Shown here: one piece after another, positions 1 through 11,781 of the stretch
Numbering within the stretch: position 1 is the first letter of the stretch
How the letters are laid out: each line of letters starts with the position of its first letter
Source of the DNA: an uncultured Gammaproteobacteria bacterium
Lineage (GTDB): Bacteria > Actinomycetota > Acidimicrobiia > Spongiisociales > SHLN01
Assembly: GCA_964195905.1 (NCBI GenBank)
Contig: CAXMQV010000127.1
Coordinates: 17,681 to 81,680, forward strand
Direction: 5' to 3'
DNA length: 64,000 nt
Made by a program: the position numbers and the translations under genes
The notes under the pieces: model-generated
What the model was told of the DNA's origin: nothing
The model's input: the letters and a program-made list of their open reading frames with translations, nothing else
The model's database searches: none

Positions 1-1073
1 CGCATCGCCCCGGTCCCGCTGGTAGTGATAGAGATGACCTGGGACAGGCTGCGGTCATGGCCCCGCAGATTGGCGGCTTCGGCTCCATGGCAGAGAGCGC
101 AACTAGCGGCATACACCGCCGCGCCGCTGCGCGCGATGGTCGTCGTCGTCGTTGCCCCCGGAAGGGTCGTGGTCGGAATGCTCTGACTCAGCAAGTAATC
201 GGCCACGTTGCCGATCTGAGCCGAGCCGAGCTCGGGGAAACCCCGCATCGACCCGATCCCATTGCTGATGATCGACACCAGCTGGCTTCTGCTCCTGGAG
301 GTCGGAACCACATTGCCGCCATTGGCCCCGTGACACGCCGCACAATTCTGCGCCCACACCGTCGAACCGGAAGCAGCAAGAGTGGTCGTCGTCGTTGCCC
401 CCGGAAGGGTCGTGGTGGTTGTCGTCGTAGCGGGCACGGTCCCGGTCACGTAGTCCCAGATGGCACCGACTTGCTCATTGCTGAGATTGGACTGGGCGGG
501 CATTCCACCCTGTCCGTTGATCGTTATGTTGATGAAGGTTGAACGCGTCAATCCCGTGCCGCTGAGATTTCCCCCGTTTGGCCCGTGGCACGCCGCACAG
601 CGGGCACCGTAGAGGGCTTGCCCATCGGGTGGGGTCCCGGGAAGGGTGGTCGTGGTGGTGGGAGGAGCGCTGCTCGACGGATCGCCCGGCAGGGACAGCT
701 GCTGAATTTCGGCACCGTTCTTGACCCCGTCACCGTCCGAATCCGCGTTGAGGAGGGCAGGGGCCAGGAAGTTCTTGTCTCCGAAATCGCCATCCTCCCA
801 ATCCTGACCGTACTGGTTGAGGTTGTTCTCGCCGGGATGCACGGGATCGGTGTGGCACAACACGCACGAATCCAGCGCAGATCCGGCCGCAGCCGGAAAC
901 GCTTGAGCAAAACCGGACATGAACTTCTGCTTGGCATCTGCCCCGGGGGTCAGAAGCAGGAGCATCACTCCCAGGAAAACGAGCACCGCAACCGCCAGGC
1001 CAAGCAGCATCCGTCGCCCCCGGTGGGCGGAATTGAAGTCTCCGGGGCCCTCACCGATCGCTCGAGGTGTCAT
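1..1073 (-). CDS. membrane-anchored multi-domain c-type cytochrome (4 CxxCH sites seen); the 3' end runs off the window
   Basis: Absent from the ORF track because there is no stop in the window. Own translation of the minus strand from ATG (comp. 1071-1073) gives MTPRAIGEGPGDFNSAHRGRRMLLGLAVAVLVFLGVMLLLL (TM anchor), then CVLCH, then NADSDGDGVKNG. Three class-I cytochrome c modules follow (YGARCAACHG..GGMP, WAQNCAACHG..GSMRGFP, YAASCALCHG), joined by Thr-rich TTTLPG(A)TTTT linkers. Confidence 0.85.
   Translation of the reverse strand, partial: MTPRAIGEGPGDFNSAHRGRRMLLGLAVAVLVFLGVMLLLLTPGADAKQKFMSGFAQAFPAAAGSALDSCVLCHTDPVHPGENNLNQYGQDWEDGDFGDKNFLAPALLNADSDGDGVKNGAEIQQLSLPGDPSSSAPPTTTTTLPGTPPDGQALYGARCAACHGPNGGNLSGTGLTRSTFINITINGQGGMPAQSNLSNEQVGAIWDYVTGTVPATTTTTTTLPGATTTTTLAASGSTVWAQNCAACHGANGGNVVPTSRSRSQLVSIISNGIGSMRGFPELGSAQIGNVADYLLSQSIPTTTLPGATTTTTIARSGAAVYAASCALCHGAEAANLRGHDRSLSQVISITTSGTGAM
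138..660 (-). repeat. three copies of a ~25-40-nt repeat encoding the Thr-rich linkers of the cytochrome
   Basis: ggtcgtcgtcgt(cgt)tgcccccggaagggtcgtggt at 138-176 and 384-418, with a diverged copy at 637-660. Confidence 0.85.
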
Positions 1074-1229
1074 ACATTCACTCGCTCTTGTCGTTTTCCG
1101 TACGCTCTTCTTCAGCAAACGCAGGTCAATGCTCAACGTACGACATTGCCGGTTAACAGAACTCCATGGAACGGTTAAGCGATCGATAAGGCCGCCCGCC
1201 ACCCGGGCAGGAGGGCCTCGAAGCTAGCG

Positions 1230-2396
1230 TTGGCGGGAATGGACGATCACTCCGCGACCTCCATGCCAATCAAACGCATCGTGCAGACTGTGGCGTCCCT
1301 GGCCATCGTGGTCGGGATCTTCGTGTTCGCGTTTCCTCAGTTCGCAGATTACGGGGACGTGTGGACCGAGATTTCCGCCATGACCGGGATCGAAGTCGTG
1401 ACGCTATTCGGGGTAGCCATCTGGAATCTCGTCACCTACTGGTTCGTGCTCACCGCGGTCATGCCGGGCCTCACCTATCCCCAGGCCGCCATCTCGAACC
1501 AGGCCTCCACTGCCGTCGCCAACACGATGCCGGGCGGAGGTGCGATCGCGGTCGGCGTCACCTACGCCATGTATCGCTCCTGGGGATTCGGCAAGAGCGA
1601 GTTCGCCCTGGCGGCAGTCGTCTCCGGAGTGTGGAACAACTTCGCCAAACTCGGGATGCCGGTGCTGGCCCTCGCCCTCCTGGCACTGGAGGGCGACATC
1701 ACCGCCACCCGGGTGATCGCGGCCGTGGTAGGCATCGGAGTCCTCATCGGTTTCATCGCTCTATGGAGCCTGTTTCTCTACAAGGAATCACTGGCTCGCC
1801 GGATCGGCGCATTCGTCGGCCGGCTCGTTAGCCGGCTCCGTTCCCTGGTCCACAAACCGCCCGTCCACGATTGGGATGATGCCGGTGCCGACTTCCGGGC
1901 TCAGGCTCTCGGCCTGCTTCGCACCCGCTGGCTGCGGCTGACCGTGTCGACGCTCGTCAGTCACATCTCGCTCTATATCGTGCTGCTCGTGACCCTCCGC
2001 CACGTTGGAGTCGGCGATGGGGTGCTCTCCTGGATCCAGGTGCTGGCCGTCTTCGCCTTCATCCGGCTGATCTCGGCCTTGCCGATCACGCCCGGTGGCG
2101 TGGGCGTCGTCGAACTCGGACTGACCGTTGGCCTGCAGGTTGCCGCCGACCTGACCAATGTGAGCGAGACAACATTCGAGGCAAAGATCGCGGCGGCCGT
2201 GCTGGTCTTTCGAGCGATCACCTTCCTCCTCCCGGTCCCGCTCGGTGCCATCTCCTATCTCATCTGGCGCACCAACAAGAGCTGGCGGAAGCTACCCCCG
2301 CCGGACGATGAGGAGAGCGAGCCCGCCGGCGGCGATCCCGAGGGCGGCTCCCCCGATACTGTCGAGCGGGAGATGGGCACCCACATAGACCCGTAG
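1230..2396 (+). CDS. flippase-like / lysylphosphatidylglycerol-synthase TM-region family (UPF0104) membrane protein
   Basis: 388-aa polytopic ORF. The pattern FAFPQFADYGDVW...NTMPGGGAIAVGVTYAM...ITPGGVGVVE is typical of this family. The start may be ATG 1239. The 3' end overlaps the convergent PAP2 gene by 105 nt. Confidence 0.75.
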   Translation: MAGMDDHSATSMPIKRIVQTVASLAIVVGIFVFAFPQFADYGDVWTEISAMTGIEVVTLFGVAIWNLVTYWFVLTAVMPGLTYPQAAISNQASTAVANTMPGGGAIAVGVTYAMYRSWGFGKSEFALAAVVSGVWNNFAKLGMPVLALALLALEGDITATRVIAAVVGIGVLIGFIALWSLFLYKESLARRIGAFVGRLVSRLRSLVHKPPVHDWDDAGADFRAQALGLLRTRWLRLTVSTLVSHISLYIVLLVTLRHVGVGDGVLSWIQVLAVFAFIRLISALPITPGGVGVVELGLTVGLQVAADLTNVSETTFEAKIAAAVLVFRAITFLLPVPLGAISYLIWRTNKSWRKLPPPDDEESEPAGGDPEGGSPDTVEREMGTHIDP

Positions 2397-2891
2397 GGTG
2401 GCCGCCCCCGTCGCCAGCGCCCACAACAGCGACGCCCACCGCTTCGGAAGGTAGGGAGTGGCGATGACGGCGATGGTGAACCCGACCGCGGCGTGCCCCG
2501 ATATGAATCCGAGCCCCCCGGGGCCTCCGTCGAGCCGATAGGCCACCCCGTCTTCGAGCAATCCGCCCGGTCGCGGACGATCGACCACCGATTTTACGAC
2601 CTTGGCCAGCAGCCAGATGCCGAAACCCGTTGAGACGAGCGCCAGGGCAGGCTGGCGCTTGCGTGTCAGGTGCCAGGCCAGTGCCCCGGCTATGAACGGG
2701 GCCGCCACCATCCCGAACTGCATGATCGGATAGAGCGGCCCCGCCAGCCAGTCGGGCCAGCCGTTTACCCACTCGAAGGCCGTTTTCTCGGCCGCCGGCA
2801 CGTTGTCGTCCCAGGCCAGGGCGGCCGCCGCCACGAAGCCTGCCGAGCCTCCCGCCAGCGCCACCAGCTGGTCGCGGCGAGTGTCAAGCAT
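2292..2891 (-). CDS. PAP2-family lipid phosphatase
   Basis: PAP2 C1/C2/C3 motifs KVVKSVVDRPRP, SGH, RVYVGAHLPLD. Start taken at MLDTRR (ATG comp. 2889-2891), which overlaps the upstream stop by 8 nt. The ORF itself is open to 2951. Confidence 0.85.
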   Translation of the reverse strand: MLDTRRDQLVALAGGSAGFVAAAALAWDDNVPAAEKTAFEWVNGWPDWLAGPLYPIMQFGMVAAPFIAGALAWHLTRKRQPALALVSTGFGIWLLAKVVKSVVDRPRPGGLLEDGVAYRLDGGPGGLGFISGHAAVGFTIAVIATPYLPKRWASLLWALATGAATLRVYVGAHLPLDSIGGAALGIAAGGLALLIVRRG

Positions 2892-3567
2892 CGAGAACCG
2901 GGACCGCCGGGGCCCTGTTGCGGAGCCACCAGATATGTACGACGGTGGCAACCCCGACGGCGGCGGCGGCGCCCAGCAGCGTTCCGGCGATGACGTCGGT
3001 GAGCCAATGAGCTCGCAGATAGGTGCGGCTCATGGCCATGAAGAAGGCAAAGCCGACCGCCAGCAGCTCCCAGATCCGCCGGTGGGGACCGGCGGGAAGA
3101 AACACGATCACGAGCGCCACCGCGGTGACGGCACCGGCGATTGCGTGCCCCGAGGGGAACGAGGCACCGGTGGTGGAAACGAGCGGGTCAATGGGGCGGG
3201 GCCGGTCGTAGAGGACCTTGAAGAGAGTCACGGAAACCTCGGCCACCACAATCGAGGCCAGCCACACCGTGAGCCACTCCCACCGTTTCTGAGCCCAGAG
3301 CAGGCCGGCCACCCCGACTCGCAGCGGCAGGGTGACCCAGGTGCTTCCGAGGTAGTTGAACGCCTTGGCGAAGAAGGTCAAACCTCCGCTCTCGATCGAG
3401 ACCATCGAATCATGGAACGAGTCGTCGAGAGGCTGCAGCGTCGAGCGCCCGAGCGCCATCCAGATCATCAGGACCGCCGCCGAAACATAGAGGGCAACGG
3501 CCCCTCCGATCGCCCAGCGGGGGTCGTCGAAGAGGTGGGGATGCCGATGCTCTGGGGCTCCGGTCAT
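2884..3567 (-). CDS. PAP2-family lipid phosphatase
   Basis: Motifs KVLYDRPRP, PSGH, SRTYLRAHWLTD. ATGA start/stop overlap with the upstream lipoprotein gene at 3564-3567. Confidence 0.88.
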   Translation of the reverse strand: MTGAPEHRHPHLFDDPRWAIGGAVALYVSAAVLMIWMALGRSTLQPLDDSFHDSMVSIESGGLTFFAKAFNYLGSTWVTLPLRVGVAGLLWAQKRWEWLTVWLASIVVAEVSVTLFKVLYDRPRPIDPLVSTTGASFPSGHAIAGAVTAVALVIVFLPAGPHRRIWELLAVGFAFFMAMSRTYLRAHWLTDVIAGTLLGAAAAVGVATVVHIWWLRNRAPAVPVLDA

Positions 3568-4424
3568 CCGAGAATGCCCGCCGATCGCAGCACCCGCCTG
3601 ACCTCACCGGCCGGGAACAAACCGATTGCCTCCTCGATGTCACCGGCCAGGCGGTCGACCCCCGGACCTTCCGCATCGAACTCGTAGGTGATGCACCCAC
3701 CCTCGAAGACCTGGTACCACATCCCGACGAAGCTCGGTTTTGGCAGCCGCCCTTCGAGCCGGTCGAAGAGATCGTGCAACTCGAGGCCTCTCACCGATTG
3801 CATCTCATCGGGCATCTGCAGCGTGGCGGTCCGCGCGGCGGCATCCTGCTCATCGACAACGATGATCGGCCGGTCCCGGCGCGCCGCCGCTGCCACCTTG
3901 TCGGCCAGGGGAAGGTCACTGGTGTCGAAGATCGCGAATATCGTTCGGCCATTGATCTGGCGCGCCTCGAGCTCGTCCTCAATGGTGTGTGCGTAGTCGG
4001 ATTCGCGACCGGTCACCGGAACGATCACGATGGTGGCATTTGACCCGACCAACTCAACGTCCTGATACTCAGACACATCCTGGTTCGGACCGCCCGCCAC
4101 CGGCGTTGCGGATCCGATGTCGCAACTCGCAGTGAGCGACACCTCCAGGAATCTCGATCCGAGGCGATCGGAATCCAGCCAGAACCTGCTCAGGCCGTGC
4201 TCGGGAATGAGGTCCTCGTACGACCAGCCGGCCTTCAGGTCATTCAGGCATGGGACGTATTCGGCCGTGTCGACCGCCTGCATCTGCAGGATGATGGCAC
4301 CGCTGAATGTGGTCACGATTTGCGGGTCCACAGGGCACGCCGGCACCGACCGGCCGAGCTGGTTGTTGCTACAGGCGGAGGCAACGAGGACAACGGCAAC
4401 GAGCAGGATCATTCGCCGGCTCAT
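3564..4424 (-). CDS. lipoprotein of unknown family
   Basis: Start chosen at MSRRMILLVAVVLVASAC (lipobox L-V-A-S-A-C). ATGA overlap with the upstream gene at 4421-4424. No family motif recognised. Confidence 0.7.
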   Translation of the reverse strand: MSRRMILLVAVVLVASACSNNQLGRSVPACPVDPQIVTTFSGAIILQMQAVDTAEYVPCLNDLKAGWSYEDLIPEHGLSRFWLDSDRLGSRFLEVSLTASCDIGSATPVAGGPNQDVSEYQDVELVGSNATIVIVPVTGRESDYAHTIEDELEARQINGRTIFAIFDTSDLPLADKVAAAARRDRPIIVVDEQDAAARTATLQMPDEMQSVRGLELHDLFDRLEGRLPKPSFVGMWYQVFEGGCITYEFDAEGPGVDRLAGDIEEAIGLFPAGEVRRVLRSAGILG

Positions 4425-6181
4425 ACGAATCCGGCTCCCGTCAGATTGTCGATGACGAATCCGAGGAACCACAGTGCGGCCAGCACGGCCCCGGCCGTGA
4501 GCCCGAGCCGGCGTCTGCTCCACCGTTGCACCGAGATGGGCTCGCAGGGAGGGGCCATGTCCCGGAAGGTCTGGATGAGATCGGGCTCACCGGTCGCGAT
4601 GTACTGCTTGTGAGCCGAACGGGATTGGGTCGGAATGGTGATGCCGCTGGTTGCCGCGAACGCCTCGGCGATGTCGTCTGGCGTGAAGTAGTCGAGGGCG
4701 GTTTGGTACACATGGACCGGGTCGTGGCGCAAGGCAAGGATCAGCATCATGTTGGCGAGGTCGACGGCCTGGCGCCATGGACTGGGACGGACGGTGGCGA
4801 AGGCCACGTCAATGAGCTTGACCTCGCCGTTATGCACCATCACATTGGCCGGCTTGATGTCGCGATGGGCCAATCCGGCGTCCCATAGTTTCCGAATCAT
4901 GAGGAGGGACTGATGAACAATCGAATCATCGATGATGGCATCGCCAAATTCCTGAGCACCGAACAAGAACTCGGTGACGAGGAGATACTCCCGTTCGGGA
5001 GTGATCTCGACGATGCCGTATGGCTTGGCCGATGGAAGCCCGGCCTCCTGCATGCGCAGCATGATGTAGTCCTCGTACTCGACGAGGCGCCTCACAGACG
5101 AAAACTTGACTTCGTCTTCAAGCGAGCCATAGAGGATCGTCCGGCCCACCTTGTACCAGCGGTCCGAGCGAAGGTGGGTTTGGGAGTAGAGCTTTGCAAA
5201 CAGATACACATCCGGCTCCCCGGCGTCAGCGTTTGGAACCGTCAGCCGGAGCGGGGTCGATCCACCCGATCCCTCCAGCCCGAACGGCTTGAGCTCGAGA
5301 ACCTCGATGCCGAGCTGATCCTGGACGGCTTGTTTGATGGCGACGCCACGAGCCCCACCAACATCGAGGTGGGCAGTGACGCCCCGCTGGTTGACCACCG
5401 GGAAGACGGCTTCTGGCACGAACAACTTGAACACGAGCACCGCCACCGCAAAGCCCAGCATCGCTGCGAATATGCCGTCGCTCGGGTGATCGACTCCCAG
5501 GTATAGGCGGGCGATGATGAGGAGCCCGACGATGACCTCCGCCATTGTCATGAAGCGGTTGCGCCACTTACCCTTCGGGAACAGCGACATCCCCATCACC
5601 CCGAAGCTCACGGCCAATCCGGCGGCCGGAGCGGACGGATGGCTGTAGCCGGTCCAGGGGCCGATGATGTCGACGAGGGGCCGGGGTCTGGCCACTGAGA
5701 TCTCGAGAGCGTTCACGACCAGCATCACGATGAAGAGCGCGCCGAGGAGGCCGAAGAGGTGCCGCCAGCGCTTGTAAAAGATGAGCACGAGGATGGTGGC
5801 CCACCGCAGGGGACGGATGAACCACTGCGAGCCGAGTGCGTGCAAGGCATCCATGACTTTCGTCACCCCGTCGGTTCGCAAGTCCTGCAGCCAGCGGAGC
5901 ACCGTCATGTCCCGATCTGTCCACCAGTTGGTTGTCTCGGTGAATACGAACAGCGAGATCCATGTCACCACCATGATCAAGCCGGCGATGATCCAGAACC
6001 AGCCGCTCGCCCGGAGCTCTCGCGGCAGCGGCGGCTTTTCCCCGGACGGCCGGCGGCGCCGACCGCTGAATCGAAGCGAGCCGATCCGAAGCTCGCGGCG
6101 AGCGCCGATGCCGGCGAGCTCGGTACCGAGCCTGCCGCTCTGCTGATAGTCGCTCGCAGAATGCGGATGATCTTCAGTCAT
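4421..6181 (-). CDS. fusion protein: N-terminal PAP2-like membrane domain plus C-terminal protein-kinase-like (Kdo/WaaP/RIO-type) domain plus C-terminal TM helix
   Basis: PAP2-like variant motifs ISVARPRP, GYSHPS, ARLYLGVDHPSD. Kinase fold signatures LFAKLY (Lys), HRDIKPANVMV (catalytic loop), KLIDVAF (DFG-equivalent). Terminal helix LGLTAGAVLAALWFLGFVI. Confidence 0.8.
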   Translation of the reverse strand: MTEDHPHSASDYQQSGRLGTELAGIGARRELRIGSLRFSGRRRRPSGEKPPLPRELRASGWFWIIAGLIMVVTWISLFVFTETTNWWTDRDMTVLRWLQDLRTDGVTKVMDALHALGSQWFIRPLRWATILVLIFYKRWRHLFGLLGALFIVMLVVNALEISVARPRPLVDIIGPWTGYSHPSAPAAGLAVSFGVMGMSLFPKGKWRNRFMTMAEVIVGLLIIARLYLGVDHPSDGIFAAMLGFAVAVLVFKLFVPEAVFPVVNQRGVTAHLDVGGARGVAIKQAVQDQLGIEVLELKPFGLEGSGGSTPLRLTVPNADAGEPDVYLFAKLYSQTHLRSDRWYKVGRTILYGSLEDEVKFSSVRRLVEYEDYIMLRMQEAGLPSAKPYGIVEITPEREYLLVTEFLFGAQEFGDAIIDDSIVHQSLLMIRKLWDAGLAHRDIKPANVMVHNGEVKLIDVAFATVRPSPWRQAVDLANMMLILALRHDPVHVYQTALDYFTPDDIAEAFAATSGITIPTQSRSAHKQYIATGEPDLIQTFRDMAPPCEPISVQRWSRRRLGLTAGAVLAALWFLGFVIDNLTGAGFV

Positions 6182-6264
6182 AGATCCCCGATCCTACGGG
6201 CTCGCAGCCACCATGGCCGGACCAGCGGAGTAGCTTGTGAAACGGAATACCGCTAGGGGGCCTC

Positions 6265-9132
6265 ATGAGCAGTAGTTCGAGCACGGCTGGATCAGTCTTC
6301 TTCGAGTGGGTAAACCGCCACATCCGCCTCGTCACGGTGGCGCTGGTCGTCGGCGCCATCGGATTCCTCTTCCTCGGCGAGTCGATGAAGACCGACGAGG
6401 ACGTGACCTTTGAACCGACCGGCGAGATCTACGACACCTTCGAGCGAGCCGACGATCTGCTGTCGCCGGAGACCTCGGTGCTGGGAGCGATCTTTCTCGT
6501 CGAAGATCCGATTGATGTTCTGAACCGTGACGCCCTGCTGGAATACAAACAGAACTCGGACGCCCTCCGCGCCGACGGCACCGCCCAGAGCCACCTCGTC
6601 ACAGTGTTCAACAACGACACCGGGCTCGAGATCGAGGGTGTGTTCTCTATTGCCGACGCCGTCGACGCCGCCCTCCCTTCCGGATTGGCCGACGCCAGCG
6701 GGGCAGAAGTCAAACTGGCCTTGCACGAATTGCTGGCGCTCGACTCCCCAACTCGCAATCTCGTGTTCGCCCTCTCCCAGGACGCCACCTCGCCCCCTGC
6801 CGTCGTGGAGGGCCGGGAGATCAACTTGTGGCAGTCACCCGTGTTCTTGTCCGACGTCCGCTACAACCTCGACACGTTCCCCGGTGAGACCGAGGATGAC
6901 CGGTTGCTGGAGGCCGAGGTATGGCTGCGGGAGGCGCAAACCACGTTGCGAGGCAGCCAGACCAACATGGAAGCCATCGGCGTCGGGATCGACTTCAACA
7001 CGTCGTTCAACGAATCATTTGAAGAAGGTGGGCCGTATATCTTCCTGGCAGTCGCCTTCATCCTGCTACTCGTCGGAGCCCTGCTGCGGTCCTACTGGGC
7101 GGCAGTGACCGTGGCGGCGGGCTTGTCGGTCACGATGATGATTTTCAACGGGTTCATCGGCGTCTTCCAGTTGGAAGTGTCTCCGCTCCTCCAACTCATC
7201 GTGCCGATCGCTTTGATCAGCTTCGGCGTCGACTTCTTCATTCACGGGTCCGGGCGAGCCCGCGAGGTTCAGGTGGAGGGCGCTACCCGGGAGCGGTCCT
7301 ATCCCCTCGGCCTGAGCCTGGTGTTCAAGGCAATGCTGATGGCAGCTCTGTCGTCGGCGGCCGCCTTCCTGTCGAATGTGGCTTCGGGGATCGAAGCCAT
7401 CACGGAGTTCGGGGTGGGAGCGGCGGTCGGCTTGTTGGTCGGCGCCGCGATTCTCGGGCTGATCGTTCCGAAGTGGCTGCTGGTGATCGAGGACCGGGTC
7501 GGGCCCTCCCCGGCCGACCGCGGCTTGATGGTCACCTACAAGATCGGCTTCCTCTTCGTCGCCCTGATTGCCGGCGTCATGGTGGCGATGAACGTCGTGT
7601 TCCCCACCATCGGGGTCGCCATCTTCCTGATCTTTTCGCTGCTCTTCATCTACCTGCCGTATCGGCTCACGCTGCGTCGCAATGCCCGGGCCGTCGCGAA
7701 GGGCCGCCCGATGAGCGATGAGGTGAAGGGAGCAGGCCACGGCATGCGATCGGCCGGAACCATCGTGCACTTCCTGGCCCGCTGGCGAGTCATCACGATT
7801 CCGATCGTGGCGGTGTTGGCGGTGGCAGGCGTGTGGGGCGCCTTCCAGGTGAGCTCGGAATTCCAGCTCAAGGACTTCCTGCCTGAAGACAGCAACCCCA
7901 TCATCTCCCTCGACAAACTCGATGAGCACTTCGGGCAATCGACCGGAGGCACCGGATTCATCTACGTGGAAGGCGACCTGACCGAGCCGTCCACGATCCT
8001 GGCAATGGAGCAGGCGGTCGACCAGATCGTCAACTCGGGCGCCAAGCTCTCAATCGACTACAACGGAGACGTCATCGTTGGCGACAACGCTGCCAGCATC
8101 GTCCGCACCGTCATGGAATCGGCCGCCGCTCAGGCGGCGGTGACCGGATCCACCGGAGTCGAATTGTCTGATTCGGACAGCAACGGACTGCCGGACACGG
8201 CCGCCCAGGTCGCCGCCGTTTACCAGCACGCCCATGGCAACGGCGTTATCAACGATGCCGGACAGACGGTCTTCACCACCGAGAACATCCAGAGCCTGCT
8301 GTACGTCGGAGGCCCGACCACTCAGGCAACCGCGCTGTCGGTCGGCATCCCTTCGTTTGTGGACGGTGTCATCATCAACGACGCCAGGGCCGCATTGGAC
8401 GCCGCCGACGCCGACCTCGAGGCCGCCATCGGCGATCGGACCGAGATCATCAGCGTGTCGGGCGACGTCATCACACAGAAGGACGGCCTCGACGCGTTCG
8501 TGAACGCCATGGTCGTCAGCATTCCGATTGCGGTGGTGCTGGCAACCCTGATCGCGGCCGCCATCATGCGTTCGTTCAAGTACGCCCTCACCGCCATCGT
8601 GCCCATCTTGCTGGTGGTGGCCTGGGTGTACGGATTCATGTGGCTGACCGACCTCAAGATCAACCCGATTACGGCCACGATTGCCGCCATCGCCATCGGG
8701 ATCGGGATCGACTTCGCCACCCACTTCACCGTGCGGTTCCGAGAGGAGTTCGAGGGCGAACCGAGCCGGTTCCCGGCGCTGCGACGGGCCGGTGAAGGCA
8801 CGGGCGGGGCGCTGGCCGTGTCGGCGTTGACGTCGATCCTCGGCTTCTTCGCCCTCAGCCTGGCTCCGACACCGATCTTCGCCACCTTCGGCTTGCTCAC
8901 GGCGGTGATGATCGCCATCGCGTTCCTCGTGTCGATCGTCGTGTTGCCGAGCCTGCTGTTGTTCGTCACGCCGAGTCGCAAGGGTGAGGAGCGCGAGGAG
9001 CTCATCCGCCGGGTCGGCGTAGCAGGCGAGGAGTACGAGCCCCACAAGCGGGAAACTGCCCTCCGCCGCACCGGCGCCGATGCCAGCACCGAGGCCGAAG
9101 CAGCCGACGAAACCCTGTCAACCGACGGGTAG
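6265..9132 (+). CDS. MMPL/RND-superfamily transporter (HpnN-like lipid exporter architecture)
   Basis: 955 aa. Two hydrophobic blocks of about 5-6 TM helices (from GGPYIFLAVAFILLLVGALL and from AMVVSIPIAVVLATLIAAAIM), each preceded by a large soluble loop. Confidence 0.85.
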   Translation: MSSSSSTAGSVFFEWVNRHIRLVTVALVVGAIGFLFLGESMKTDEDVTFEPTGEIYDTFERADDLLSPETSVLGAIFLVEDPIDVLNRDALLEYKQNSDALRADGTAQSHLVTVFNNDTGLEIEGVFSIADAVDAALPSGLADASGAEVKLALHELLALDSPTRNLVFALSQDATSPPAVVEGREINLWQSPVFLSDVRYNLDTFPGETEDDRLLEAEVWLREAQTTLRGSQTNMEAIGVGIDFNTSFNESFEEGGPYIFLAVAFILLLVGALLRSYWAAVTVAAGLSVTMMIFNGFIGVFQLEVSPLLQLIVPIALISFGVDFFIHGSGRAREVQVEGATRERSYPLGLSLVFKAMLMAALSSAAAFLSNVASGIEAITEFGVGAAVGLLVGAAILGLIVPKWLLVIEDRVGPSPADRGLMVTYKIGFLFVALIAGVMVAMNVVFPTIGVAIFLIFSLLFIYLPYRLTLRRNARAVAKGRPMSDEVKGAGHGMRSAGTIVHFLARWRVITIPIVAVLAVAGVWGAFQVSSEFQLKDFLPEDSNPIISLDKLDEHFGQSTGGTGFIYVEGDLTEPSTILAMEQAVDQIVNSGAKLSIDYNGDVIVGDNAASIVRTVMESAAAQAAVTGSTGVELSDSDSNGLPDTAAQVAAVYQHAHGNGVINDAGQTVFTTENIQSLLYVGGPTTQATALSVGIPSFVDGVIINDARAALDAADADLEAAIGDRTEIISVSGDVITQKDGLDAFVNAMVVSIPIAVVLATLIAAAIMRSFKYALTAIVPILLVVAWVYGFMWLTDLKINPITATIAAIAIGIGIDFATHFTVRFREEFEGEPSRFPALRRAGEGTGGALAVSALTSILGFFALSLAPTPIFATFGLLTAVMIAIAFLVSIVVLPSLLLFVTPSRKGEEREELIRRVGVAGEEYEPHKRETALRRTGADASTEAEAADETLSTDG

Positions 9133-9154
9133 GGGCGCAAGGAGCATCGGACAG

Positions 9155-9181
9155 CCGGTGACTGGTGACCGGTGACTGGTT
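9155..9181. repeat. tandem heptamer array (CCGGTGA/CTGGTGA) x~4
   Basis: ccggtga ctggtga ccggtga ctggtta. Convergent spacer. Touches the flavin reductase stop codon. Confidence 0.9.
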
Positions 9182-9680
9182 AATGCCGCTTGACGCCGCC
9201 GTACTTCATGCGGGTGTCCGACATGGAGGCCACTTCGGCGTCATCGTCTCTGATGCCGGCCGCCACGACTTCGCCGAGAAACAGCGTATGGGTGCCTACC
9301 TCGATCGCCTCTCGGACCGCGCATTCGAGGTAGGCGACCGCCTCCTCGAACACCGGCGCCCCGGTTTGGCCTTCCCGAATCGGGCGCTCGTTGAGGGTCA
9401 TCCCATCCTTGGTTGCTGGCTTCGAGAACTTGACGAAGGGCCGAGTGTCTTCGGCATCCCAGAGATTGATGGTGAAGACCCGGCTCTCGTCGACGAGACG
9501 GTGGGTAACGGAGCTGCTGTCGACCGACACGGCGATGAGCACCGGCTCCATGGACACCTGAGTCACCCAACTCTGGGTCATGCCGTTCCACGCGTCGCCG
9601 GACCGCGAGCCGAGCAAGCACAGCGCGTTCGGAATCTTCCACGTGACCTTGTTGATGAGTTCGATCGGCAGATCTGACAC
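9180..9680 (-). CDS. flavin reductase-domain protein
   Basis: 166 aa. Flavin_Reduct-like pattern ALCLLGSRSGDAWNGMTQSWVTQVSMEPVLIAVSV...HTLFLGEVV. Confidence 0.75.
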   Translation of the reverse strand: MSDLPIELINKVTWKIPNALCLLGSRSGDAWNGMTQSWVTQVSMEPVLIAVSVDSSSVTHRLVDESRVFTINLWDAEDTRPFVKFSKPATKDGMTLNERPIREGQTGAPVFEEAVAYLECAVREAIEVGTHTLFLGEVVAAGIRDDDAEVASMSDTRMKYGGVKRH

Positions 9681-9725
9681 GAGCCTCCATCCTTTCGGAG
9701 AGGGATCACTGTACGGGATCCGGCG

Positions 9726-9750
9726 CAGCTACCAGCTACCAGTTACCAGT
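9726..9750. repeat. tandem heptamer array (CAGCTAC) x3.5
   Basis: cagctac cagctac cagttac cagt. Divergent spacer. Confidence 0.9.
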
Positions 9751-9781
9751 TTTCTGTGTCGGAGCGACGGGCCGGGGGCCC

Positions 9782-9809
9782 GCGGCCGGCGGCCGGCGGC
9801 CGGCGGCGA
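9782..9809. repeat. tandem heptamer array (GCGGCCG) x4
   Basis: gcggccg gcggccg gcggccg gcggcga. 30 nt upstream of the usp ATG. Confidence 0.9.
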
Positions 9810-9838
9810 AGCGACCATCCCGGCTAGCCTCACGCTTG

Positions 9839-10342
9839 ATGAACATCCTCATCGCAACGGCTGGCGTGCTTCCACCCGAGCCGGTCGCCGCCATCGTCGA
9901 GCGCCTGGTCGATTCTCGCGACACGGTGCGGGTGATAACGGTCCTTGCGATCCCCCGCTCGTTCCTCAACGAAATCCGGTCCGAGGAATGGCGACCGCTC
10001 ACTGAGAGTGCCCCCGGGTGGGACGAGGAGGAAGATGCGGTGATCGCTCGCTACGTCGAAGAGCGCGGCCGCCGACTCACCGACCCCGTGGTCTCCGCTC
10101 TGCGGACCCGCAATATCGATGCCGAGGCCATTCACCTGGAAGGCGAGGACAAAGCCGGGGCCATCATCAGCACCGCCGAAGCGATCGATGCCGACCTGGT
10201 CGTTCTCGGTGCTACCAGGCAGATCTTCGCCGAGTCCGCCTGGGAGAGCATCTCAGCCAGAGTGATGGCCGACACCCGCCGACCCGTGCTGGTCGTTCCC
10301 GGCCACATCCCCTCCGACGAGGAGCCCGAATCGATTGACTGA
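9839..10342 (+). CDS. universal stress protein (UspA family)
   Basis: MNILIATAG...ADLVVLGATRQ...PVLVVPG layout. ATG at 9839 preferred over TTG at 9836. Confidence 0.75.
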   Translation: MNILIATAGVLPPEPVAAIVERLVDSRDTVRVITVLAIPRSFLNEIRSEEWRPLTESAPGWDEEEDAVIARYVEERGRRLTDPVVSALRTRNIDAEAIHLEGEDKAGAIISTAEAIDADLVVLGATRQIFAESAWESISARVMADTRRPVLVVPGHIPSDEEPESID

Positions 10343-11222
10343 GTTCCTGCGCACCCCGGACGACGCCTTCGTGGGCCTTCCCGATTACCCCTTCGAGCCC
10401 AACTACTTCGAGTGGAACGGCATCCGGATGCACTACCTGGATGAAGGCGAAGGCAGGCCGGTCGTCCTGTTCCACGGTGAACCAACCTGGTCGTTCCTGT
10501 ACCGGAAGGTGATCCCTCCGCTGGTGGACGCCGGCTACCGATGCATCGCCCCCGATTACGTGGGACTTGGCAGGTCCGACAAGCCGGTCGACGACGCTTT
10601 CTATACCTTCGACATGCACACCGACTCCGTGACCGCTCTGCTGGGATCGCTCGACCTGGTCGATGCCACCGTCGTGGGTCAGGATTGGGGCGGACCGATC
10701 GGTCTCCGCTTCGCCGTCGAGAACCCTGAGATCGTGACCCGCCTTGTGGTTCTCAACACCGGTCTCTTCAGTGGCCGCGGCTCGATGTCCGAGAGCTGGA
10801 TGAGGTTCCGAGATTGGGTGAAAGACACGCCCGACCTCCCGGTCGACTTCCTCATGTCCCGCAGCGAGGCACACCCCTGGGGAGCCGAAGTCCTGGCCGC
10901 CTACGGAGCACCCTTCCCTACCGCGGAACACAAGGCCGGGATCAGGCGGTTCCCGATGATGGTGCCGCTCGATCCAGACGATCCGGGGGCGGCCGAGATG
11001 CTGGCGATACGCCAGAAGCTTTCGGCATGGGAGAATCCGGCCTACGTGTTGTTCTCGACTGGCGATCCCATCTTCACGACCCGTACCGGCGAACGCCTCG
11101 CCGAGCTCATCCCCGGCGCCGGTCCGCTCGACACCATCGACGATGCCGCCCACTTCCTTCAAGAAGACCAGGGTGAGGAAGTCGGCCGCCGGATCGCTTC
11201 CTGGCTCGATTCGCTCGGTTGA
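10335..11222 (+). CDS. haloalkane dehalogenase (DhlA-like, alpha/beta hydrolase)
   Basis: Close match along the whole length to remembered DhlA: IRTPDxxF..YPFxPNY...HYLDEG...HGEPTWSxLYRKxIP, nucleophile motif GQDWGG, C-terminal AAHFLQED. TTG start overlaps the usp stop. Confidence 0.9.
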   Translation: MTEFLRTPDDAFVGLPDYPFEPNYFEWNGIRMHYLDEGEGRPVVLFHGEPTWSFLYRKVIPPLVDAGYRCIAPDYVGLGRSDKPVDDAFYTFDMHTDSVTALLGSLDLVDATVVGQDWGGPIGLRFAVENPEIVTRLVVLNTGLFSGRGSMSESWMRFRDWVKDTPDLPVDFLMSRSEAHPWGAEVLAAYGAPFPTAEHKAGIRRFPMMVPLDPDDPGAAEMLAIRQKLSAWENPAYVLFSTGDPIFTTRTGERLAELIPGAGPLDTIDDAAHFLQEDQGEEVGRRIASWLDSLG

Positions 11223-11223
11223 C

Positions 11224-11781
11224 GTGGCACACCGGTTGACGCTCGTGCTGCTCGCTCTGGCGCTCCTGGCGAGCGCTTGTGGCAGCGGGCCATCGCTCAC
11301 CGAGTATGCCGCGGAACTCCAAGCGATCGTCGGCACTCACAACGTAGACATGGACGGCAACGACAGCGACTTCGAGCGCCAGCCTCCGACCGTCGAAAGC
11401 ATCCGCTCTTATGCGACCACCCGCATGGAACTTCGCAACACCTTCCTGGCCGAGTTGGAAGCACTCGAACCTCCCAGCGAGGCCGCCGATCTCCACTCAG
11501 CCGCCCTTGAAACGATTCGCACGCTGGTGGCGGCCGAGCAGGAATTGTTTGAGATTGCGACCGGCAGCGACGACATCAACGACCTGCAGGACTTGTGGAC
11601 TTCCCCGGCGGGCCAGACCGCCCGTGACGCCGACGCACAGACCATCGCCATCTGTCAGGCGGCGGAAGCTGCCATCAACTCGACCGAGGAGCGCCAGGCC
11701 CTCGTTGGCATGGTGTGGGTCCCAACCGAACTCCAGGAAGTTGTCACCGTCGCCTTCGAGTGCACCGCCGCCGAGCGCTGA
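11224..11781 (+). CDS. lipoprotein of unknown function
   Basis: GTG start one codon after the upstream stop. VAHRLTLVLLALALLASACG lipobox. High GC3. Confidence 0.65.
   Translation: MAHRLTLVLLALALLASACGSGPSLTEYAAELQAIVGTHNVDMDGNDSDFERQPPTVESIRSYATTRMELRNTFLAELEALEPPSEAADLHSAALETIRTLVAAEQELFEIATGSDDINDLQDLWTSPAGQTARDADAQTIAICQAAEAAINSTEERQALVGMVWVPTELQEVVTVAFECTAAER

Follow-up and report, generated by a model that had tools for sequence, protein, structure and literature searches.

What does a cell gain from a protein that joins a lipid-phosphatase-like membrane domain to a kinase, and how is this protein related to the lipoprotein and the two further phosphatase-family proteins whose genes are chained to its own? 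The question is raised by six open reading frames (ORFs), all with clean translations, between positions 1230 and 9132 of a 64,000-nucleotide stretch of contig CAXMQV010000127.1 (assembly GCA_964195905.1), which we refer to here as the window. Four of the genes lie on the minus strand and are joined by overlaps; they encode a fusion protein of 586 amino acids (6181->4421, that is, 4421..6181), a lipoprotein of 286 amino acids (4424->3564), and two standalone members of the PAP2 family, PAP2-A and PAP2-B. The other two, on the plus strand at either end of the chain, encode a flippase-like protein and an RND/MMPL transporter. The first-pass annotation of this locus counted three PAP2 phosphatase domains and one kinase, and it proposed that they run a phosphorylation and dephosphorylation cycle on a lipid, coupled to MMPL export. 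The answer that we favor, with a confidence that falls somewhat short of even, is a receptor-like signaling kinase, in which a pseudo-phosphatase membrane module and an extracytoplasmic co-sensor would be tied to lipid-phosphate turnover.

The conserved unit at this locus is the kinase fusion together with the lipoprotein, and the PAP2 and flippase-like genes are its frequent neighbors. To define this unit we assembled 81 loci together with their flanking DNA (10 kb at most on either side), 80 of which reach far enough for adjacency of the lipoprotein gene to be evaluated. In all 80 the lipoprotein gene lies immediately 3′ of the fusion gene, and in 79 its start overlaps the fusion stop, by 4 nucleotides ([AGT]TGA) in 73 loci, L078 included, and by 1 nucleotide (TGATG or TAATG) in 6; in the remaining locus (L047) the lipoprotein gene is downstream but an overlap with the fusion stop is not clear. 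In the window this junction is the ATGA at 4421–4424. The kinase–lipoprotein pair is obligatory and stoichiometrically coupled, and the partner domain is extracytoplasmic. Conservation of the neighborhood across relatives, which had been suggested as a check on the original proposal, is thus borne out most clearly for these two genes.

The remaining junctions of the chain follow the same pattern. A second ATGA, at 3564–3567, forms the lipoprotein stop and the start of PAP2-A (3567->2884, 227 amino acids), and ATGCTTGA is the 8-nucleotide overlap by which the end of PAP2-A runs into PAP2-B (2891->2292, 199 amino acids). The coordinates and junctions of these four genes are as first described. 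The neighboring flippase-like gene (1230..2396, plus strand, 388 amino acids) was correctly placed as convergent, to which we can add that its 3′ end overlaps that of PAP2-B by 105 nucleotides (2292–2396). The exact arrangement, with all three overlaps and the convergent overlap, is kept in six relatives (L003–L008) whose fusion proteins are 73–87% identical to that of the window; in these, the PAP2-A/PAP2-B overlap remains of the [AG]TGnnTGA type and the convergent overlap spans 105–159 nucleotides. Because these overlaps recur in six relatives, and because the fusion and lipoprotein genes overlap in 79 of 80 loci, the gene arrangement is not due to chance.

The family to which the fusion protein belongs is large. 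It has thousands of homologues, the nearest at 92% identity, and its nearest relatives are found in metagenome-assembled genomes (MAGs) of Acidimicrobiia. In a pattern scan across species-representative genomes we confirmed at least 578 loci, every one of them in a MAG from Acidimicrobiia or other Actinomycetota, and a search of 1.84 billion representative proteins with the kinase domain returned 1098 clusters (at 50% identity) with E ≤ 1e-3, of which 304 had E ≤ 1e-30. No cultured host appeared among the named matches, including those of a search with a divergent member, all of which were MAGs; isolate genomes were not screened.

Several individual loci are worth describing in their own right. 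An apparent 763-amino-acid kinase–lipoprotein fusion (L078, 9920–12211) proved to be a frameshift in the seventh transmembrane (TM) helix in a long-read MAG, with the ATGA intact, and was not counted; it serves as a warning against taking such ORFs for natural fusions. Outside the 80-locus set, one locus (L085, 1519–5029) lacks the lipoprotein; it encodes a variant with a cNMP-binding domain, followed after 19 nucleotides by the gene for a secreted GSDH-like (glucose/sorbosone dehydrogenase) protein. Many MAGs carry two paralogous fusion–lipoprotein pairs (for example L015/L018, L017/L020, L037/L071, L048/L058, L035/L061 and L012/L055; also L031, L069 and L073). The neighbors of two such pairs often differ, so that one may be RND-linked and the other linked to PAP2 and flippase-like genes, and the pairs are sometimes less than 5 kb apart.

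The lipoprotein itself is a predicted bacterial lipoprotein, with a signal peptide and a lipobox, MSRRMILLVAVVLVASAC, whose Cys18 is conserved at a level of at least 90% across 40 homologues. Four further cysteines (C30, C59, C101 and C244) are invariant, and this set is consistent with a disulfide-bonded extracytoplasmic protein. The protein was first described as having no recognizable family, and this stands: no Pfam or NCBIfam family scores above its cut-off, and a Foldseek search with a confident AlphaFold2 (AF2) model (pLDDT 91.6) found no PDB match to the conserved core. An insert within this core (residues ~125–225; 3750..4052, minus strand) does have a recognizable shape, that of the anticodon-binding domain of class II aminoacyl-tRNA synthetases. 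Specifically, Foldseek aligns it with the ThrRS domain over ~97 columns at an rmsd of 2.2–2.4 Å (TMq 0.29), a likeness that exists at the fold level only; the Pfam model HGTP_anticodon (PF03129) scores 18.5 bits against a cut-off of 21. The insert is absent from a clade of short lipoproteins of ~190 amino acids (L077-type, 191 amino acids), and the corresponding HMM positions 123–228 are likewise missing from forms in which the core is fused to the kinase protein.

Of the three PAP2 phosphatase domains originally counted, only those of PAP2-A and PAP2-B keep the catalytic motifs. The membership of the fusion protein's own domain in the fold is clear: Pfam PAP2 (PF01569) scores 34 bits at residues 143–254 against a cut-off of 27.2, the family profile matches Bacillus subtilis PgpB (5jki) with E 1.1e-12, and Foldseek superimposes the fusion model on the same structure (TMt 0.78), the six-helix fold being common to both. 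The active site of this TM module (residues ~58–255; 5417..6010, minus strand) is degenerate. In an alignment of 200 family members, from which all residue counts for the fusion protein and its kinase are taken, the position of the C1 lysine (residue 160) is variable and is E160 in the window protein, that of the general-acid histidine of C2 (residue 185) is proline in 190, and that of the nucleophilic histidine of C3 (residue 231) is aspartate in 189; all three motifs occur together in 0 of the 200. Other residues of the pocket, namely R165, R167, P168, P182 and D235, are kept. Because the C1 lysine and both catalytic histidines are lost in all 200 relatives, the module is probably a pseudo-phosphatase, from which phosphatase activity is not expected. 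Two nearby histidines that might have taken over as shifted catalytic residues are unlikely to do so; H181 is present in 181 of the 200 sequences and otherwise replaced by M or F, and H232 is present in 190 and otherwise replaced by Q, R or Y.

It is informative to consider how such a protein would sit in the membrane. We infer a cytoplasmic N-terminus, the degenerate six-helix module, the kinase, a seventh TM helix and a short extracytoplasmic tail, in that order. The N-terminal 61 residues hold 12 lysines and arginines, and a hydrophobic helix follows the kinase (hydropathy peak at residues 559–577, AF2 helix at 556–581), ending in the tail DNLTGAGFV (helix and tail together, 4424..4516, minus strand), which is conserved across the alignment. 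The active site of PgpB faces outward. Given the basic N-terminus, the PgpB fold and the hydrophobic helix after the kinase, the degenerate pocket would lie at the outer leaflet, the kinase would be cytoplasmic between TM6 and TM7, and the tail would be outside. This has a consequence for function, because a pocket and a kinase on opposite faces of the membrane cannot act on one lipid molecule simultaneously. Within the basic N-terminal region lies a further conserved element, G-R-R-R-R-P-[S/T]-G-E (residues 40–48; 6038..6064, minus strand). R42–R44, P45 and G47 are present in 194–195 of the 200 sequences, the shortfall being due to alignment gaps and, at R42 and at G47, to a single substitution; at position 46, 185 of 195 sequences have Ser or Thr. 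It is possible that this motif is a site of autophosphorylation or a pseudosubstrate.

The kinase-like domain (residues ~262–555; 4517..5398, minus strand) was recognized as such from the outset, and its catalytic set is indeed complete and nearly invariant, but all of its matches to Pfam kinase models fall below the curated cut-offs. K330, E370, H439, R440, K443, N446 and D458 are invariant and D441 is found in 199 of the 200 sequences; the glycine-rich loop GSGGST, the catalytic loop HRDIKPAN and the Mg-binding D458 are each kept in 199–200. The catalytic motif of Hanks-type kinases (PF00069) is accordingly present, but the canonical APE/GHI region is not, and the activation segment is short, with ~16 residues between D458 and the alphaF-like D474. 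The Pkinase model (PF00069) reaches 27.6 bits against a cut-off of 31.7 and spans residues 420–463 only, the RIO1 model (PF01163) reaches 16.6 bits against 22 (some relatives score 24–28), and the Kdo/WaaP model (PF06293) reaches 20.6 bits against 21.3, with a few relatives marginal; together these sub-threshold matches cover residues ~366–480. By Foldseek, the nearest kinase folds are those of RIOK3, RIOK1, Rio1 and PRPK/Bud32, and relatives carry the NCBI name ‘RIO1 family regulatory kinase/ATPase’. The HRDIKPAN loop, which we take to be nearly that of Mycobacterium tuberculosis PknB, is a signature of Hanks Ser/Thr protein kinases and is unlike the loops of KdkA, WaaP or APH. To judge from these sequences, the kinase is constrained as an active phosphotransferase.

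The resemblance to RIO and Bud32 proteins invites a different explanation, namely that the domain is an ATPase switch or assembly factor, whose hydrolysis of ATP would drive a conformational cycle that gates or assembles a membrane complex of the pseudo-PAP2 module, the lipoprotein, the flippase-like protein and the RND protein without any phosphotransfer. The nearest structures, the label attached to the relatives, and the short activation segment without a canonical APE region are all in keeping with this idea. Yet two residues typical of phosphotransferases, the HRDxK lysine and the catalytic aspartate, show no variation or almost none; the loop lacks the motif specific to RIO proteins, and the RIO1 Pfam scores lie at or below threshold. 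We consider a switch of this kind improbable.

Additional insight comes from the variants of the fusion protein found elsewhere in the family. In a large sister clade, proteins of ~720–760 amino acids continue beyond TM7 into the lipoprotein core, which there has no signal peptide. The cis-fused core matches the lipoprotein with an hhalign probability of 99% (E 2.7e-18), of 51 full-length representatives at least 14 are built in this way (cis-fused forms include P0219, P0220 and P0233), and a search with one such protein found at least 120 full-length clusters. These Rosetta-stone fusions, together with the coupling of the two genes in 79 of 80 loci, point to the lipoprotein as the partner of the kinase. 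Another protein, P0273, combines in a single chain an intact PAP2 domain, a degenerate PAP2 domain, a kinase, a TM helix and a sensor domain, its first domain being 43% identical to PAP2-A of the window (E 2e-38). That the genes of the cluster form a conserved functional unit, as was proposed, is hence supported both by the conserved overlaps and by the joining of the fusion protein, the lipoprotein core and PAP2-A into single polypeptides elsewhere.

Other additions are at the N-terminus; these include STAND NTPase plus TPR repeats (5 representatives), REC, REC plus a GerE helix-turn-helix (HTH), a cNMP-binding domain, and the intact PAP2 domain just described (proteins P0211, P0212, P0214, P0215, P0290, P0240, P0261, P0026 and P0273). 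Furthermore, the gene for an OpuAC-like (glycine-betaine/choline-type) binding protein abuts or overlaps the fusion start in 16 loci, which fall in the L062–L080 clade and in L082–L084, that is, in clades with a short or cis-fused sensor (e.g., L067 8993–9928 and L082 7171–8004). These clades have PAP2 and flippase-like genes nearby as well; the clade of the window has no OpuAC-like gene. It is this collection of REC, REC-HTH, cNMP, STAND-TPR, cis-fused sensor and OpuAC-like variants that leads us to prefer a receptor kinase over a metabolic lipid kinase. In one of the loci (L082, 12168–15677), a guanylate/adenylate cyclase, an OpuAC-like protein and a second cyclase are encoded 2 kb downstream of a cis-fused member, which hints that OpuAC-like proteins are used as signaling sensors in these organisms.

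A different type of fusion links the family to the flippase-like protein. An 860-amino-acid protein in L037 (3790–6372, minus strand) consists of a TM region, a paralogous kinase-like domain and an LPG_synthase_TM domain (hhalign probability 98.3% over 334 columns), and is encoded in an operon with an RND orthologue and a 187-amino-acid ORF, divergent from the fusion–lipoprotein pair. This kinase-like domain has HRH instead of HRD and is possibly an inactive pseudokinase. Fusions of kinases with PplT have been reported in Actinobacteria (preprint 10.1101/2022.03.11.483950).

How closely the other genes of the cluster belong to the kinase–lipoprotein pair can be assessed in 45 loci, those that are flanked on each side by at least 5 kb, counting as a neighbor any gene within 3 kb. 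A standalone PAP2 gene is a neighbor in 32 of the 45, a flippase-like orthologue in 30 and an RND orthologue in 8; in 5 none of the three is found. The RND gene is therefore a recurrent but facultative neighbor, and it is missing even from L005 and L006 (78% and 73% identity). Linkage drops off steeply with distance: 406 kb of DNA at 0–3 kb from the pair contain 66 PAP2, 47 flippase-like and 11 RND genes, and 620 kb at 3–9 kb contain 0, 1 and 1, respectively. De novo clustering of neighboring ORFs yielded no further universally recurrent gene; it did recover lineage-specific synteny, the OpuAC-like gene of one clade and, in Acidimicrobiia, a family of small lipoproteins.

These counts bear on the idea that only the kinase and the lipoprotein form a module, the PAP2, flippase-like and RND genes being independent housekeeping genes held nearby by local synteny. 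The order, orientation and content of the genes around the pair do vary, and both the loss of the RND gene from L005 and L006 and the 5 loci without any of the three accessory genes are what one would expect under this explanation. However, in every clade sampled the accessory genes are found almost exclusively at 3 kb or less from the pair, the start of the flippase-like gene overlaps the lipoprotein stop in L001, and both PAP2-A (in P0273) and the flippase-like domain (in L037) have been fused to the kinase protein or to its paralogue. We regard such a coincidental assembly as highly improbable. Separately, the module of the L066–L080 clade adjoins the housekeeping region rbfA-truB-ribF-pnp, an instance of lineage-specific synteny and not of a functional link.

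The same neighbors raise the possibility of a metabolic route, and here the lipid cycle of the first-pass annotation survives in part. Its premise of a functional unit holds, but the third PAP2 domain is dead and the RND gene facultative, and the cycle becomes the chief competitor of the receptor model. In its revised form, the kinase would phosphorylate a lipid or head group in the inner leaflet, the flippase-like protein would move the product outward, and PAP2-A and PAP2-B would dephosphorylate it outside; the lipoprotein, and the RND protein where there is one, would receive or export the product, and the dead PAP2 module would be an anchor or a lipid-binding platform. Such a route gains plausibility from a kinase tethered to the membrane at both ends, from its weak scores on Kdo/WaaP and APH models and its RIO/Kdo-like shape, from the tight linkage of flippase-like and intact PAP2 genes, from the active-type PAP2 fused to the kinase protein in P0273, and from precedents in which an enzyme is paired with a UPF0104 flippase, namely MprF, gpgSDF and hexSDF (PMC12713373) and the PplT fusions. 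Nonetheless, a housekeeping lipid kinase would not readily account for the invariant extracytoplasmic cysteine-rich partner, for the OpuAC-like proteins or for the variants with REC-HTH, STAND-TPR and cNMP domains, 5 of the 45 loci lack flippase-like, PAP2 and RND genes altogether, and the one kinase-like domain fused to a flippase has the HRH sequence and may well be inactive. The catalytic loop, too, has the Hanks protein-kinase signature and not that of KdkA, WaaP or APH. We judge this route rather unlikely, and favor the receptor-like kinase over it because of the placement of pocket and kinase on opposite faces, the Hanks-type loop, and the signaling input domains and binding proteins.

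For the purposes of discussion, the receptor-like kinase can be laid out as follows. The fusion protein and the lipoprotein would form a two-protein membrane complex, made in 1:1 coupling, of a seven-TM pseudo-PAP2/kinase and a disulfide-rich lipoprotein. A cytoplasmic kinase with the shape of RIO and Bud32 and a Hanks-type HRDxKPxN loop would be placed between helices 6 and 7, and the lipoprotein on the outer face would serve as the extracytoplasmic domain of that kinase. A ligand outside the cell would be held by the dead-phosphatase pocket and the lipoprotein, this ligand most plausibly being a phosphorylated lipid (polyprenyl (pyro)phosphate or phospholipid) or a reporter of one. Binding would shift the helices by which the kinase is clamped on either side and so switch an ATP-dependent cytoplasmic output, which could be autophosphorylation (perhaps at the RRRRP[S/T]GE motif), the phosphorylation of membrane proteins that act as partners, or both. 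The process under control would probably be lipid-phosphate turnover and translocation in the cell envelope, since the usual neighbors are intact PAP2s and an MprF-type flippase-like protein, and sometimes an HAE3/HpnN-like RND protein. Whether this amounts to a new and widespread actinobacterial class of receptor kinases, with a dead PAP2 module as a TM sensor of a phosphorylated envelope lipid, a disulfide-rich domain supplied in trans or in cis, and an active kinase that governs PAP2s, flippase and RND exporter, is a suggestion that we advance with more doubt than belief.

There are several considerations that weigh against the receptor-like kinase. The AF2 model of the fusion protein is mediocre (pLDDT 68.5) and was used for fold assignment only. 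RIO and Bud32, the nearest folds, work largely as ATPases, and REC and cNMP domains regulate metabolic enzymes as well as signaling proteins. The weak scores on Kdo/WaaP and APH models, which describe small-molecule and glycolipid kinases, make a non-protein substrate possible. No recurrent FHA protein, PP2C phosphatase or classical partner of Ser/Thr signaling was found in the neighborhoods, and every family member seen comes from a MAG or metagenome. Finally, MprF and gpgSDF (PMC12713373) couple a UPF0104 flippase with the maker of the lipid that is flipped, which favors the lipid route.

The standalone proteins of the cluster lend themselves to more direct assignment. PAP2-A scores 66.7 bits on Pfam PAP2 against the cut-off of 27.2, its KX6RP, PSGH and SRX5HX3D motifs align to PgpB (5jki), and the motifs are intact in 39 of 39 orthologues. 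PAP2-B scores 60.9 bits against the same cut-off, its motifs align to LpxE (6ebu), and 25 of 32 orthologues have all three. Both proteins thus have the characteristics of the PAP2 family and are predicted lipid-phosphate phosphatases. The description of the flippase-like neighbor as a UPF0104/LPG_synthase_TM protein also holds, as it scores 59.3 bits on LPG_synthase_TM (PF03706), above the cut-off of 33.4; the more specific models TIGR00374 (31.4 bits against 43.2) and NF033480 (43.5 bits against 600) stay below theirs. Its 388 residues contain the flippase-like domain only, without an aminoacyl-phosphatidylglycerol (PG) synthase domain, and it is not a bifunctional MprF. A terminator-like hairpin, detected in a sigma-70/terminator consensus scan, lies at the PAP2-B stop (2302–2284, minus strand). 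With the 105-nucleotide convergent overlap, this hairpin may allow antisense or transcriptional interference between PAP2-B and the flippase-like gene.

At the other end of the chain, the RND/MMPL gene (6265..9132, plus strand, 955 amino acids) diverges from the fusion gene across an intergenic region of 83 nucleotides (6182..6264), and not 84 as first given. The protein has 12 TM helices and two large outer loops, in agreement with hydropathy, and belongs to the MMPL/RND superfamily (Pfam MMPL 77 bits against 20.5; Sterol-sensing 23.3 bits). The original label of MMPL exporter is therefore right as to Pfam family but needs qualification, in that the protein is HAE3/HpnN/Patched-like and a facultative neighbor. 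A PDB sequence search matched Patched1, HpnN, Dispatched and NPC1, with no MmpL3 chain at E ≤ 0.001, and the NCBIfam models all remain below cut-off (TIGR00921 HAE3, 137.7 against 351.9; actII, 83.4 against 874.7; HpnN, 80.1 against 751.85; also BstA). An Rfam scan of window positions 1–10000, which include the divergent gap, found no family, and a scan of the gap (6182–6264) for a sigma-70-type consensus gave no match, a result that is uninformative.

Turning to the surroundings, an NCBIfam scan of the proteins of the cluster produced no model at its cut-off, and the genes outside it (flavin reductase, alpha/beta hydrolase and ABC transporter) are unrelated. A small lipoprotein-like ORF of 212 amino acids without a Pfam match lies at 11143–11781 on the plus strand; in many loci of Acidimicrobiia, members of its family are encoded a few kb or less from the module (for example L001 9229–9876, L003, L004, L018, L019 and L065), the window copy matching that of L001 with E 1.4e-18. 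We also considered a role in anti-phage defense. PADLOC returned only weak matches of the kinase loop to its PD-T4-6 and Stk2 models and none for the other five proteins, and we rejected this role, as the matches reflect a generic kinase loop only.

It is worth considering what this family could offer. Little is understood of the way in which monoderm bacteria gauge their lipid carriers and phospholipids and keep them in balance across the membrane, and, to our knowledge, ligands are known for few bacterial Ser/Thr kinases. If the receptor-like kinase is correct, the module would be a compact and very conserved test case, with a dead lipid-phosphatase pocket as candidate sensor, an obligate partner outside and an active kinase, and with likely effectors (the phosphatases and the flippase-like protein) encoded beside it. 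Acidimicrobiia and other uncultured Actinomycetota carry the family in abundance; understanding it would help to annotate thousands of proteins now mislabeled as ‘PAP2 family’ or ‘RIO1/Bud32’, and a new route of envelope-lipid regulation could emerge. Should the lipid route prove to be right instead, a new ATP-dependent pathway of lipid phosphorylation and flipping would be of interest too. We suggest that the earlier picture of three phosphatases and MMPL export should yield to one that we find the better description, in which a receptor-like kinase with a pseudo-phosphatase module depends on a lipoprotein as obligate co-sensor, usually in the company of active PAP2 phosphatases and a flippase-like protein and sometimes of an RND transporter.

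Comparing the components of this locus with known systems reveals both likeness and difference. PAP2-A and PAP2-B have the same fold and all three motifs of the BcrC/PgpB class, as represented by PgpB/YodM (5jki) and LpxE (6ebu), whereas the module of the fusion protein shares the six-helix fold of PgpB but lacks the catalytic lysine and histidines. Eukaryotic plasticity-related proteins (PLPPR/LPPR) also have a dead lipid-phosphatase fold that is thought to be used in signaling or binding, a likeness that is conceptual only; they are not fused to kinases, and we know of no evolutionary link between them and the fusion family. Similarly, the kinase has the compact fold and short activation segment of RIO, Bud32 and Kdo/WaaP kinases, but differs from RIO and Bud32 in its Hanks/PknB-type loop, in its setting within an integral membrane protein, in an N-terminal extension peculiar to the family (AHLD...QLG), and in the absence of a ribosome or KEOPS context.

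The accessory proteins have their own precedents. In MprF, and in operons of a synthase with UPF0104/PplT such as gpgSDF of Pseudomonas aeruginosa (PMC12713373), a PF03706 flippase-like protein is linked to lipid-active enzymes, as it is here; in the present cluster, however, the partners are a kinase and PAP2s, with no aminoacyl-PG synthase or glycosyltransferase, and the flippase activity is a prediction. The 12 TM helices and sterol-sensing-like region of the RND protein are shared with HAE3, HpnN and Patched/NPC1, but the window protein scores below the NCBIfam cut-offs, has no hopanoid or sterol genes nearby, and is a facultative neighbor (8/45). A literature search turned up no publication on the kinase–lipoprotein family, in agreement with the original remark that this gene combination is not a described pathway; the nearest concept is the SEAE1 ‘PAP2-PIK-like’ module predicted in Segetibacter (bioRxiv 10.64898/2026.09.18.752743), in which a kinase-like protein, a PAP2 and a secreted protein are read as acting on lipids. 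SEAE1 differs in having a soluble kinase family from another phylum (Bacteroidota), in a lineage-restricted arrangement with no PAP2 fusion or lipoprotein coupling.

The systems to which the receptor-like kinase can best be compared are those in which a cytoplasmic kinase or pseudokinase is coupled through the membrane to a sensor outside, namely PknB-PASTA, MviN (MurJ) with its pseudokinase, and GlnH-GlnX-PknG (PMC6069109). The parallels extend to the parts, as MviN joins a lipid-carrier flippase to a kinase-like domain, and in the GlnH system a lipoprotein binding protein, encoded within the same operon, is the sensor (PMC6069109). The fusion family departs from all of these in its kinase subfamily, in its dead-PAP2 membrane module and in its new cysteine-rich sensor, and the signaling that we infer here is a prediction.

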